Below, piece by piece: positions 1,620 to 49,770 of a DNA stretch of 64,000 bases; the stretch's first letter is position 1; each line of letters opens with the position of its first letter. The translations under genes and the position numbers were made by a program. Below the pieces are notes generated by a model that saw only the letters and a list, made by a program, of their open reading frames with translations, was not told where the DNA came from and searched no databases. The DNA comes from an uncultured Bacillaceae bacterium (lineage in GTDB: Bacteria; Bacillota; Bacilli; Tepidibacillales; Tepidibacillaceae), in the NCBI GenBank assembly GCA_964538675.1, contig CAZIGM010000002.1, positions 2,870-66,869 on the forward strand. The letters run 5' to 3'.

Positions 1620-1978
1620 TATACAATCTCCTTATAATCAACTCGAGGAGCGTCGCCCCATAGACGTTCAATATTATAGAAGGTCCTTTCTTCCTTATGA
1701 AAGATATGAATGACTACGTCTCCTAAGTCAATAAGTATCCATCTAGCTTGATTTAAACCTTCCATTCCCTTAATATCAATGTTTTTCTCATTCATTTTGC
1801 TTTTTATTTCATTAGCAATAGCTTGTACTTGAGTTTCCGAATTACCACTACATATTACAAAGTAGTCTGCTATTAATGATAGTTCCTTTATATCTAATAT
1901 TACTGTATTTATTGCTTTTTTGTCGTCAGCAATCTTTGCCGTTAATTGTGCTATTTCATTTATAGTCAAACTCATCAA
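1619..1978 (-). CDS. rsfS: ribosome silencing factor RsfS (YqeL/IojAP)
   Basis: 119 aa with an ADYFVICSGNSETQVQAI type core. Its position after yqeK matches Bacillus. Confidence 0.85.
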   Translation of the reverse strand: MMSLTINEIAQLTAKIADDKKAINTVILDIKELSLIADYFVICSGNSETQVQAIANEIKSKMNEKNIDIKGMEGLNQARWILIDLGDVVIHIFHKEERTFYNIERLWGDAPRVDYKEIV

Positions 1979-2568
1979 TTTTCCTCCTTTTGCATATTTT
2001 CAATATCATCAATTAAATAATTTCTTGCTTCTAATGTTAAATAATATATCTTCATTTTCTTTTCTAGTAAAAACATTATTGTCCCATCGAATGTTGCCAA
2101 CATTGCTTTGTCTAAATCTTTTTCTGCTAATATTCTAATCTTATCTACACCCTCAAATTGCCTATTTGGTTCAATATAATCTGCTAGACAGATTATTTTC
2201 TCAATTAGTGACATATTTTTTCTTCCTGAGGTATGAAATCTAATTGAGTTTATTATTTCTTCATCATAAATATTAAATTCATCTCGGATAATTATTGAGG
2301 CCACTGGACCATGCCATAATTCTTCATTATATTCTAATAAACCATTGGGTAAATCATTCTTTTCTTTAATAAATAAAGCTAACTTATTCTTATCCCAATC
2401 CTTGCAATAATCATGTAATATTCCTGCGATCTCTGCTTTTTTTGGATCAGCACCAAATCTAATAGCTAAAGTTCTTGCAATATCTGCAACATCTAATGAA
2501 TGGAGAAAGCGATTATGATTTACTTGTTTCTTTAATTCACTCTTAAAAAAATCAATCTCCATCATCAT
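1975..2568 (-). CDS. yqeK: HD-domain protein YqeK (bis(5'-nucleosyl)-tetraphosphatase family)
   Basis: HD motif ILHDYCK and RFHTSG. ATG at 2568 lies 10 nt after AAGGAG. The ORF-track start at 2598 lies deep inside nadD. Confidence 0.8.
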   Translation of the reverse strand: MMMEIDFFKSELKKQVNHNRFLHSLDVADIARTLAIRFGADPKKAEIAGILHDYCKDWDKNKLALFIKEKNDLPNGLLEYNEELWHGPVASIIIRDEFNIYDEEIINSIRFHTSGRKNMSLIEKIICLADYIEPNRQFEGVDKIRILAEKDLDKAMLATFDGTIMFLLEKKMKIYYLTLEARNYLIDDIENMQKEEN

Positions 2569-18533: not shown

Positions 18534-18561
18534 TTGAGTTTTCTAGTATTCATGATATAAT
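18534..18561 (+). promoter_or_regulatory. sigma-A-like promoter (TTGAGT-16 nt-TGaTATAAT)
   Basis: Extended -10 with a perfect TATAAT. The same architecture recurs at 19636-19663 and 20220-20247. Confidence 0.45.
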
Positions 18562-18567
18562 TTCATT

Positions 18568-18795
18568 AAAATTAATAGTTCTTTTGAACTATAAATTAAT
18601 AATACAATCATAGATTGTGCAGATGTAAAACAACCCTTTATTAGTGATTTTATACACTAAATACAGTAATGTTGTTATAAATACATCTGGTTTACTATCG
18701 TACTACCAACACTAGTGTATGTATGGGGTTTGCTCTGTACATAGACTTTTTTGTTTTTTTCTAAAATTCAATTTTTTAAAAGAGGGTGAAGATTT
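18568..18795 (+). promoter_or_regulatory. structured ~230-nt leader L1 of the receiver gene (unclassified)
   Basis: Homologous in blocks to leader L2 (20255-20482). Ends in a terminator hairpin at 18715-18760. Confidence 0.5.
18715..18760 (+). terminator. leader L1 intrinsic terminator
   Basis: GTGTATGTA-loop-TACATAGAC followed by TTTTTTGTTTTTTT, upstream of the receiver start codon. Confidence 0.6.
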
Positions 18796-19182
18796 ATGAA
18801 AAACTCCAAGATACTTATTATTGAAGATGAACACTCTATATCCGAAATCCTAACTTATAAATTAAAAAAAGAGAAATTTGAAGTAATGGGTGCGAAAACT
18901 GGACAAGAAGGTTTAATTGTAATACCTTACTTTAAACCAGACCTTATTTTACTAGATATTAAACTTCCTGATATTAGCGGATTTGATATCTGCAAAGAGA
19001 TAAAAGATAACTATCAAACTCCTATAATTATGTTAACAGCTAGAATCAATTTAAAGGATATAAGTTATGGATTAGCCCTTGGAGCAGAAGATTATATTAC
19101 AAAGCCTTTCGACATCAATGATGTTTTAGAAAGAATTAACTTAGTATTAGATAGAAGGAAAAATACTTCATGTTTTAACTAA
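18796..19182 (+). CDS. stand-alone response-regulator receiver domain protein (CheY/Spo0F-like)
   Basis: 128 aa with acidic pocket IIEDE, phospho-acceptor LILLDIKLPD, LTAR and KPF. No output domain. RBS is GAGGGTG. Confidence 0.85.
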   Translation: MKNSKILIIEDEHSISEILTYKLKKEKFEVMGAKTGQEGLIVIPYFKPDLILLDIKLPDISGFDICKEIKDNYQTPIIMLTARINLKDISYGLALGAEDYITKPFDINDVLERINLVLDRRKNTSCFN

Positions 19183-19207: not shown

Positions 19208-19549
19208 ATGAGAAAAAATATTATTTTTCATAAGGAGGTGATTCTTATAAATACATCCTTAACAAAGAAAATAAACCATAGCAAAAATAACTCTCAAAAA
19301 CAGAAGGTTGAGGATATTGAAAAAAATATTTATGAAGAAAAATTGAAAGAAGAATTTTTCAATAATATATCTCATGAAATAAAAACTCCTATTACAATAA
19401 TCTTAGGTTATGCTCAACTATTAAAGGAAGAATACTATAGCTGTAATGGAATTCACTCTATAGCAATAGATTATATAGAATCCGAAAGCAAAAAACTAAA
19501 TTCAATAGTAGATGAAATTATTGAAAAAGCCAGATATAGTAAATATTAA
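19208..19549 (+). CDS. DHp (HisKA) -only mini-protein, paralog 1
   Basis: H-box FFNNISHEIKTPITIILGYAQLLKEE. The ORF stops about 55 aa after the His with no ATP-binding domain. Start is uncertain because AAGGAGG at 19232 is followed by no canonical start codon. Confidence 0.6.
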   Translation: MRKNIIFHKEVILINTSLTKKINHSKNNSQKQKVEDIEKNIYEEKLKEEFFNNISHEIKTPITIILGYAQLLKEEYYSCNGIHSIAIDYIESESKKLNSIVDEIIEKARYSKY

Positions 19550-19663: not shown

Positions 19664-19725
19664 TTTTTTTAGCTTTTTTAATAATAAAGATTAAAACTGA
19701 TATGTTCAATGAGGAGATAGAAATA

Positions 19726-20025
19726 GTGAATATAGCTAAAAAACATAAATTTGCAAAAACTAAAATTACTTCATTTAACAAGCCTATTAATAAAAAGAAA
19801 ATAATAGTTTCAGAAAACTATAAAAAAGAATTTTTTAATAACATATCTCATGAAATTAAGACCCCACTAACTATAATCTTAGGCTACGCACAACTTTTAA
19901 AAGAAGAGAATTTCAGCTCTGAAAGACTGTATTTAGAAGCTGTTGAAAATATAGAGCATGAAAGCATAAGATTAAATTCATTAATAAATAATCTTATAGA
20001 AAAAGCAAAACAAACTAAAAATTAA
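19726..20025 (+). CDS. DHp (HisKA) -only mini-protein, paralog 2
   Basis: H-box FFNNISHEIKTPLTIILGYAQLLKEE. GTG 19726 lies 9 nt after GAGGAG, whereas the ORF-track ATG 19702 lacks an RBS. A terminator follows. Confidence 0.65.
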   Translation: MNIAKKHKFAKTKITSFNKPINKKKIIVSENYKKEFFNNISHEIKTPLTIILGYAQLLKEENFSSERLYLEAVENIEHESIRLNSLINNLIEKAKQTKN

Positions 20026-20067: not shown

Positions 20068-20219
20068 GCATTTATTCTCACTCATTTTTTTCTCCTTCTT
20101 TCTTCCCCTATGCCATACACTTTGTCTTTCTGAAACGTAATGAAGAATCTTTTTTTCTTGATAGATTATTCGGAAAAGCCTCAGATTAACTTATTTATGG
20201 AAAAATACATAATTAATGT

Positions 20220-20247: not shown

Positions 20248-20254
20248 TTTCTAA

Positions 20255-20482
20255 GGGAAATTAAAAAGTTGCCATGACCCTTGAGTGTTGGAAGCACTCA
20301 AAGGCTCATGCAGGTGAATTGGCACCTACACGTGAGACATATTGTCTCCACAGCAACGATGTTATTATATACTATATTTGGCATTTCCTCAATCAACAAT
20401 AACATTAGTGCATGTGTAGGGTTAAACCTGCGCATGCACTTTTTAATTTCCCTCCAAAAAAAATATTTGGAGGGAAATTTAT
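20255..20482 (+). promoter_or_regulatory. structured ~230-nt leader L2 (homolog of L1)
   Basis: Block homology to L1. Terminator at 20408-20445. An extra hairpin TTCCCTCCAAA/TTTGGAGGGAA (20448-20476) covers the SD. Confidence 0.5.
20408..20445 (+). terminator. leader L2 intrinsic terminator
   Basis: GTGCATGTG-loop-CGCATGCAC followed by TTTTT. Two stem positions co-vary with the L1 hairpin. Confidence 0.6.
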
Positions 20483-20594
20483 ATGCAACAAGCTAGAATA
20501 CTCGTCATTGAAGGACTACTTCACAAAACCTTTTGATATTAACGAATTACTAAAGATAATTAAAAAGACAGTAAAACAAAGTTGCTTATGCTAG
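20483..20594 (+). pseudogene. receiver-domain gene remnant with large internal out-of-frame deletion
   Basis: Starts MQQARILVIE (receiver N-terminus). One frame over it continues DYFTKPFDINELLKIIKK (receiver C-terminus). About 85 codons are missing in between. Confidence 0.7.
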
Positions 20595-20647: not shown

Positions 20648-20890
20648 ATGTTTATTAATGAGAAAGATAATAAAATTATTATGGAAAAATATAAAGAGGA
20701 GTTTTTCAACATTCTAGCGCATGAACTCAAAACCCCACTTACAATAATTATAGGATATGCCCAGTTGTTAAAAGAAGAAGAATTTAGTTCAAAGGAAACT
20801 TATCTAAAAGCTGTTAGCAATATAGAATATGAAAGCAAGAAGCTTAACTCTATAATAGATGAGCTTATAAAGAAGGCAAAACAATTTTAA
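20648..20890 (+). CDS. DHp (HisKA) -only mini-protein, paralog 3
   Basis: 80 aa with H-box FFNILAHELKTPLTIIIGYAQLLKEE. AGGAG lies 8 nt upstream of the ATG. Confidence 0.7.
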   Translation: MFINEKDNKIIMEKYKEEFFNILAHELKTPLTIIIGYAQLLKEEEFSSKETYLKAVSNIEYESKKLNSIIDELIKKAKQF

Positions 20891-49446: not shown

Positions 49447-49700
49447 TATTTTCCCTCCATAAATAAAAAATAAAAAATAAAAACCACATCCCAAAAACAT
49501 AGGGACGTGGTTAAACGCGTTACCACCCTAATTAAGAGCATGCTTAAATTCTCTCATCTCATTTGCTTAACGGGTTACCGGAATAGTTTTATTTTCTATT
49601 CAGCTCTAGTATTGTAATTCGGTTAGATAATATTGTACTGACTTCCACCTTAATATCAGCTCTCTTAGAACAAATATTATCGCCTACTTAGAACTTTCAT
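49447..49700 (-). promoter_or_regulatory. T-box riboswitch leader (Tyr specifier)
   Basis: T-box sequence AGGGTGGTAACGCG at 49516-49529, terminator stem at 49484-49510 with a T-run, AGAGA motif, and a UAC codon at 49635-49637 followed by A in a specifier-loop-like context. Confidence 0.85.
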
Positions 49701-49770
49701 TGCTTTTATTTATAAGATTTTTATTAATTTTTAACATAATATCTTACAAAAGTCAATATTGCTCTTCTTA

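Follow-up and report, generated by a model that had tools for sequence, protein, structure and literature searches.

Two leader RNAs of about 230 nt in the window, by which we mean the whole 64,000-nt stretch of DNA analysed, look like selected RNA gates of an undescribed and very rare type. Both would be cis-acting 5′ UTR RNAs in which premature intrinsic termination keeps a small signalling operon off. With moderate confidence, we regard them as a lineage-specific terminator/antiterminator attenuator, complemented in one of the two forms, the leader-2 type, by a putative second gate acting on translation. This attenuator reading is supported by the architecture of the loci, by selection on the RNA structure and by a plausible antiterminator predicted from the folds.

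A duplicated module with a terminator before each first gene

The region between 18.5 and 20.9 kb holds one module in two paralogous versions, each consisting of a leader, a receiver gene and a DHp-only gene. In module 1, leader 1 (18568-18795, plus strand) is the 5′ UTR of an intact gene encoding a receiver-only response regulator of 128 aa (18796-19182, plus strand; Pfam PF00072, E=1.6e-28), which shares its transcript with the gene for DHp (HisKA)-only protein 1, hereafter DHp-1 (113 aa; 19208-19549, plus strand; Pfam PF00512). DHp-1 is followed by a terminator and by a second DHp-only gene with its own promoter (19702-20025). In module 2, leader 2 (20254-20482, plus strand) precedes a receiver remnant (20483-20594, plus strand) in which the first ~10 codons run out of frame into the last ~28, an internal deletion with frameshift that makes it a pseudogene. 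The next gene, encoding DHp-only protein 3 (80 aa; 20648-20890, plus strand; Pfam PF00512), is intact and can still be controlled by leader 2. The first-pass annotation had placed both leaders in front of receiver genes; this holds for leader 1, whose receiver is intact, but in leader 2 the receiver is only a pseudogene.

Both leaders start from promoters of the extended -10 type, with TG upstream of TATAAT, as had been proposed from the letters alone. The consensus scan scored 10/12 for each of them: that of leader 1 lies at 18534-18561 on the plus strand (TTGAGT, 16 nt, TG-n-TATAAT) and that of leader 2 at 20219/20220-20247 on the plus strand (TTTGCA/TTGCAT, 16/17 nt, TG-n-TATAAT). Promoter-like sites are frequent in the scanned stretch, which is AT-rich, with 32 found against 19 expected. 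Measured from the -10 box, the ATG lies at 234 nt in leader 1 and at 235 nt in leader 2, in agreement with the leader length of ~230 nt given earlier.

Intrinsic terminators upstream of the coding regions, likewise reported before, were recovered in both leaders by the scan. The terminator of leader 1 (18714-18747, plus strand; 3+11 bp, scan stem 18718-18743) is followed by a long U tract at 18748-18762, and that of leader 2 (20407-20440, plus strand) has a stem of 14 bp followed by a T run. The scan returned three terminator-like sites over 2.7 kb, where shuffled sequence would give 0.5. The compensatory changes described between the two terminator stems are also real: in columns 175/200 and 180/195 of the alignment, C-G replaces U-A and G-C replaces A-U. 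The two start codons (18796 and 20483) lie 30-45 nt downstream of the terminator ends, leaving no room for another promoter, and the downstream genes would therefore be transcribed only through the terminators. An intrinsic terminator between promoter and start codon, the generic mark of an intrinsic-terminator attenuator, is accordingly present in both leaders.

Predicted structure of the leader-2 type and its proposed switch

The leader-2 type comprises leader 2 of the window (L2) and two copies on contigs C9 and C23 of G009, a genome from a different genus of the same order. The order of its elements was derived from full-length minimum free energy (MFE) folds and the RNAalifold consensus. 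After a single-stranded 5′ end, RNAalifold predicts a four-way junction (20268-20357, plus strand) made of P0 (GUUGC/GCAAC), a long P1 (20273-20310), P2 (20312-20327; GGUG/CACC) and P3 (20332-20351; GAGAC/GUCUC). It is followed by P4 (GAUGUUAUU/AAUAACAUU; 20358-20406, plus strand), which is found in the MFE fold, in RNAalifold and in pair counts, and then by the terminator. P4 carries a 31-nt loop, the 5′ part of which is block 3 (UUAUAUACUAUAUUUGG), the best-conserved stretch in common with leader 1. Read on the minus strand, the reverse complement of block 3 (20392-20364) forms a near-consensus promoter (TTGAGG, 17 nt, TATAAT; 10/12). Such matches occur at background frequency and this one is absent from leader 1, and we rejected an antisense promoter as the cause of block 3 conservation.

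The candidate antiterminator uses as its 5′ strand CCUACACGUG (20325-20334, plus strand), which shares nucleotides with both P2 (3′ arm) and P3 (5′ arm), and as its partner the 5′ arm of the terminator (20411-20420). When prefixes of the nascent RNA were folded up to the terminator loop, the antiterminator was the MFE structure in L2, C9 and C23: CCUACAC(GUG) pairs with (CAU)GUGUAGG of the terminator 5′ arm, and the resulting three-way junction encloses P3 and P4. It is also the best duplex that the terminator 5′ arm can form with upstream RNA, surpassing 98.6% of dinucleotide shuffles in L2 (p=0.014) and 99.2% in C9 (p=0.008); for C23 and leader 1 the corresponding p is about 0.25. In all four leaders the best duplex is located at the homologous segment. 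Among L2, C9 and C23 the terminator 5′ arm is invariant and the 3′ arm varies at four columns, always in a wobble-compatible way, an asymmetry to be expected of a strand with two partners. Across the leaders the terminator state is more stable than the antiterminator by only 5-10 kcal/mol, the margin being 6-10 kcal/mol for the leader-2 type, and therefore termination should be the default.

From these folds, we infer a switch and its direction as follows. The first ~105 nt would fold into the four-way junction P0-P3, tying up CCUACACGUG, the terminator would then form and the default state would be OFF. If the junction were prevented or opened, CCUACACGUG could pair with the terminator 5′ arm (CAUGUGUAGG) to give the three-way-junction antiterminator, with read-through by RNA polymerase. 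Turning the operon on would thus need something that hinders the junction or stabilises the antiterminator.

A second gate may operate in the read-through RNA. The first 16 nt of leader 2 (AGGGAAAUUAAAAAGU; 20254-20269, plus strand) are perfectly complementary to ACUUUUUAAUUUCCCU, which extends from the last terminator pair through the U tract into the anti-SD. This pairing, with the U tract and anti-SD at 20438-20455, is worth -19.7 kcal/mol; its first base is precisely the predicted +1, and the 5′ end is invariant in the C9 copy. The same anti-SD can form a hairpin with the SD (AAUUUCCCUCCAAA / UUUGGAGGGAAAUU; 20445-20479, plus strand), with an energy of -18.8 kcal/mol for L2 and -15.6 kcal/mol for C9. 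In the MFE fold of the C9 read-through RNA, the helix between the 5′ and 3′ ends is formed and the SD is free. The anti-SD would switch translation off by pairing with the SD and on by pairing with the 5′ end of the transcript, and these two states are predicted to be nearly isoenergetic.

Selection on the leader-2-type RNA

The core of leader 2 is better conserved between the two genomes than the genes around it. It is 90.9% identical to the C9 copy (180/198), compared with 79.6% nucleotide identity between the adjoining DHp gene and its C9 ortholog (Fisher p=0.0013), where most differences fall at third codon positions. The receiver remnant shows 75-76% nucleotide identity to the ends of the C9 receiver, and the syntenic ROK gene 71.9% identity between the window genome and G009.

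The pattern of substitutions follows the predicted structure. Eleven of the 18 substitutions between L2 and C9 are in unpaired columns, namely the hairpin loops of P1, P2, P3, P4 and the terminator and one junction base, and the seven in paired columns all keep the pair, none being broken; two terminator pairs are changed on both sides. When the 18 substitutions were placed at random, a mean of 7.6 pairs was broken, and zero broken pairs occurred in 0/20000 trials. The C23 copy has two double-compensatory pairs in P1 and only one broken pair. Purifying selection spans the whole 5′ domain of the leader-2 type, beyond the terminator alone, and the covariation, which the first-pass annotation had drawn from the terminal hairpin, extends to P1 and P4. 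Across the four sequences, 92.6% of the cells are paired and both partners differ in ten pairs, where shuffles give 3.7 +/- 1.3 and slid controls 0-4; these values come from four related sequences of two genomes, two of them near-identical, and from a structure partly derived from these same sequences. The covariation statistics are weak, and validation by covariation is impossible with the present sequences. Coming from four related sequences, these figures are an indication, rather than proof, of selection on the structure of the leader-2-type RNA.

Leader 1 as a diverged relative

The two leaders have a global identity of 65%, and BLASTN of each against the window's own genome did not link them. 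An nhmmer profile of the three leader-2-type sequences was searched against the whole 1.88-Mb genome, where leader 1 (18668-18775) was the best non-self, non-palindromic match (E=0.032), the matched part running from block 3 through the terminator. We accept homology of the 3′ halves because this match sits at the exactly analogous position upstream of a paralogous gene. Leader 1 was not recovered with a covariance model built for the 5′ domain of leader 2, and in the alignment with the leader-2 type the P1-P3 columns of leader 1 are mostly unpaired. On this sequence comparison, detectable homology between the leaders is confined to their 3′ halves. As leader 1 is devoid of the leader-2 5′ domain, the two leaders have no common sensor there: their regulatory logic may be common, a common 'aptamer' is not. 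Of the four aligned blocks that had been described, those in the 3′ half are upheld, but blocks one and two are not significant on their own; block one has some outside support, as a third leader, from G009, also contains GCAGATGTAAAA.

By MFE, leader 1 folds into a 5′ hairpin at 18570-18597 and a long hairpin at 18621-18688 (plus strand) in which block 1 (CAGAUGUA, AACAAC) pairs with block 3 (GUUGUU, UACAUCUG), together with a possible short P4. The folds show neither a helix between 5′ end and tail, nor a strong SD hairpin, nor a four-way junction. Inside the long hairpin, at the position homologous to CCUACAC of leader 2, lies an ACCCU segment that can pair with GGGGUU of the terminator 5′ arm; forcing this pairing costs 5 kcal/mol, and by the shuffle test the duplex is indistinguishable from chance (p about 0.25). 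Leader 1 would then be a diverged, simpler paralog that keeps the promoter, a block 1:block 3 hairpin enclosing the ACCCU anti-terminator segment, P4 and the terminator.

The GCAGAUGUA...UACAUCUGC hairpin of leader 1 is also present in the syntenic leader on contig C1 of G009. In this short leader (locus L149, around 1789-1930, minus strand), which adjoins a ROK kinase gene and lies directly before a DHp-only gene, block 1 GCAGAUGUAAAA and its block 3 partner UACAUCUG form a simple hairpin plus a U tract. The locus itself (L149 1064-1791, minus strand), next to the same ROK kinase gene, carries a tandem pair of DHp-only genes but lacks a receiver, and the promoter of the second gene lies inside the loop of the first gene's terminator hairpin.

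Distribution and relatives

The leaders had been described as matching no recognisable riboswitch class, and database searches bear this out. At the gathering threshold of Rfam 15, neither leader was matched and the window yielded only Cobalamin, T-box and Moco RNAs elsewhere. Relaxing the search to E<=10 added only noise for the leaders (rli38, snoRNAs and miRNAs, all far below threshold), and the homologous G009 loci had no match. With covariation also reaching beyond the terminator, the earlier proposal withstands its own refuting conditions to the extent that they are computable. A word search of the literature returned nothing specific to such leaders.

Within the order of the window genome (15 genomes, one family), BLASTN found copies in G009 only. 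The C9 copy is 89-91% identical to leader 2 and has an intact receiver and a DHp-only gene downstream; the C23 copy is 79% identical and is followed by a degenerate truncated receiver in which the acceptor Asp is replaced by Glu. Searching the 151 nearest relatives with a full-leader model (R1) gave true matches only in the window genome (G000) and G009; matches of ~30 bits in G004 and G011 were rejected, since they consist of a P4-like hairpin and a terminator but lack the 5′ domain. A model of the 5′ domain (R2) had no match outside the window genome in 150 genomes of the class, and revealed no further copies in G000 and G009. The leader family is very rare, having been found in only 2 of about 400 class genomes searched.

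The DHp-only genes are similarly restricted. In a tblastn search with DHp-1 of 401 class genomes, short DHp-only frames occurred in G000 and G009 only, and the remaining matches were full-length kinases. These short DHp-only ORFs have 80-120 aa and carry the H-box. A protein homology search with DHp-1 identified four small DHp-only relatives in Logan and JGI assemblies (P0002-P0004, P0006). The receiver, searched against genome contigs, found only generic receivers with identities of <=53%. An ordinary pair of an OmpR-type regulator and a kinase, such as that on G009 contig C22 (L190), is the likely parent type.

Searches of metagenome, viral, plasmid and phage sequences added no copy. A pattern scan of metagenomes with block 3 gave five matches, none of which fits R1, and we discarded them as chance level. 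Two pattern scans of viral contigs gave nothing, and BLASTN against plasmids and phages gave generic two-component genes or nothing.

The C9 locus of G009 has two further features. The SD region of its intact receiver is a run of 11 G (L022, about 2174-2184, minus strand), which could vary in length (phase variation) or be an assembly artefact. Just downstream of the module, a nucleotidyltransferase/HEPN-like gene pair is flanked by three copies of a ~150-nt repeat (L022 45-194, 223-372 and 1226-1376), 65-95% identical in two parts, for which Rfam returned noise only.

Comparison with known regulators and nature of the trigger

In their predicted folds, the leaders resemble the T-box leaders and riboswitch expression platforms of Firmicutes, in which a promoter is followed by a structured sensor region, mutually exclusive antiterminator and terminator, and the gene; as in those systems, the terminator 5′ arm would be the shared strand and the terminator state is the thermodynamic ground state. 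Unlike T-box leaders, they are without the T-box sequence and the Stem I/specifier architecture and match nothing in Rfam, their putative sensor is a four-way junction, and unlike T-box and riboswitch leaders in general, they control signalling proteins rather than aminoacyl-tRNA synthetase or metabolic genes. A T-box identity was rejected, as RF00230 scored 100.7 bits on a genuine copy at 49498-49709 and did not match the leaders even at E<=10.

Leaders of protein-dependent antitermination systems, such as the ANTAR targets of EutV/NasR, the RAT of LicT/SacY, PyrR and TRAP, resemble the present ones in being short, lineage-restricted and dedicated to one operon type. In these systems a trans-acting protein picks the terminator or the antiterminator, and ANTAR systems are linked to two-component signalling. 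The leaders differ from TRAP and HutP targets in lacking UAG/GAG repeat arrays, and from protein-dependent leaders as a whole in that the module has no gene for an RNA-binding protein. An ANTAR target was rejected, there being no pair of hexaloops with A1/G4 on reading by eye and no ANTAR gene in the module; the P2 loop, as read by eye from the folds, is AAUUGG or AUAUCAC and the P3 loops have 3-5 nt.

Attenuated leaders can double as trans-acting sRNAs, as do SreA/SreB of Listeria and the EutX/Rli55 riboswitch-sRNAs of Enterococcus and Listeria. Similarly, a terminated leader of ~200 nt could accumulate here as a stable RNA, and copies are kept before dead genes; in contrast to SreA/SreB and EutX/Rli55, these leaders embed no known aptamer.

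Other explanations of the leader sequence were also rejected. A leader peptide is contradicted by the 42-codon ORF at 20274-20402 having no SD, by its shrinking to 6 codons in C9 and by the absence of its AUG from leader 1; we regard this ORF as non-coding, although C23 has a comparable open frame of about 53 codons. The leaders do not behave like a MITE either: each genome has only two copies, which without exception precede the same module, and the leader flanks TTTCTA and CCAAAA are not a target-site duplication. Inverted ends would suit a retron-like ncRNA, yet no reverse transcriptase gene follows.

As to the trigger, we infer that a trans-acting macromolecule, either a protein or an RNA recognising the conserved block 3 loop, is more likely than a metabolite. 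Block 3 is the best-conserved single-stranded element that both leaders have in common, and a predicted loop of this kind would suit a protein or RNA partner. A metabolite riboswitch would be expected to show a conserved aptamer in all members and in many lineages; instead, leader 1 has no 5′ domain, and among the genomes searched the family is found in G000 and G009 only. The metabolite reading is unproven and somewhat disfavoured. The earlier proposal had named a riboswitch or an attenuator; of the two, the attenuator is supported by the architecture, by selection and by the predicted leader-2 antiterminator, but the riboswitch is weakened by the lack of a common sensor domain, the restriction to two genomes and the signalling genes under control. 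A more ambitious possibility, which we consider rather doubtful, is that the leader-2 type is the first representative of a novel class of sensing riboregulators, with a four-way-junction sensor, a terminator/antiterminator switch and a second gate in which the 5′ end of the transcript and the SD compete for the anti-SD. Such a class would serve to turn on, upon some ligand or factor, a kinase-less phosphorelay module of receiver-only and DHp-only proteins.

Alternative explanations

The switch itself could be illusory, with the terminator and the SD hairpin acting as constitutive dampers that set a low expression of a duplicated and partly decaying module, and with the alternative pairings being coincidental. 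The module is indeed decaying, its receiver being deleted in L2 and degenerate in C23, neither leader 1 nor C23 shows significant antiterminator complementarity, and AT-rich genomes yield many chance pairings and promoter-like sites (the 32 against 19 expected). Dampers of this kind, however, would not account for purifying selection over the whole 5′ domain rather than the terminator alone, for an antiterminator strand and a terminator 5′ arm that stay invariant while the 3′ arm drifts, or for a 16-nt complementarity between 5′ end and tail that begins exactly at +1, and we find this reading improbable. We assign an equally low probability to a genuine riboswitch for a small molecule or an ion, of a new class in which the four-way junction or the P4 loop would bind a ligand, for example a second messenger, and so select between terminator and antiterminator. 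The multi-helix junction is structured, its junction and loop nucleotides are invariant while the hairpin loops vary, the expression platform is of the classic type and no known class matches. Its distribution, though, is extremely narrow, with G000 and G009 as the only carriers among the 151 nearest relatives, none further in the 150-genome class sample and none of the five metagenome pattern matches fitting the model. Short DHp-only ORFs are likewise restricted to G000 and G009 in the 401 class genomes, the RNA was never found upstream of another gene type, leader 1, which precedes the intact receiver of this genome, is without the junction domain, and the signalling genes under control hint at no ligand.

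A different kind of alternative is that each unit from promoter to terminator is a stand-alone gene for a trans-acting sRNA of ~190 nt, with the downstream genes expressed by leak-through and the leader position incidental or secondary, as in a dual-function RNA. The unit has a strong promoter and a strong terminator, and its RNA is compact, with the 5′ end closing on the tail, and is better conserved than the flanking genes; moreover, L2 and C23 have been kept, with structure-preserving changes, before dead receiver genes. That two of the four copies precede broken receivers could mean that the RNA works independently of the receiver. The P4 loop of L2 (20369-20394) can also pair with the 3′ coding end of DHp-1 (19519-19542) at -20.6 kcal/mol, beating 98% of shuffles; this duplex is interrupted, with about 21 bp and p about 0.02 against shuffles of the module-1 mRNA. 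The match could be fortuitous or could reflect contact in trans of one module with the other, and on reading by eye the complementarity is not kept in the DHp genes of G009. Against an sRNA gene also speak the anti-SD/SD hairpin and the SD mimic at the 5′ end, which are meaningful only in cis, the position of all copies directly upstream of a receiver/DHp gene or its remnant, with no free-standing copies, and the intact DHp gene that L2 still has to control. On this evidence, we rate a stand-alone sRNA as unlikely, and the cis-acting attenuator is the reading we prefer.

Significance

As an attenuator, the leaders are a very rare new form of a familiar kind of regulator, notable for the two proposed stacked gates and for the odd genes under control. 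Their general importance is limited by this rarity, with two genomes and 2/4 copies located before broken receivers. If the switch is real, it would be an undescribed RNA gate on an unusual module, in which a stand-alone receiver is combined with mini-proteins consisting of the histidine-kinase dimerisation domain only. It would also be a clean natural case of stacked transcriptional and translational gates, in which the 5′ end of the RNA serves as an anti-anti-SD. The trigger of such a switch would tell when the signalling module is used.
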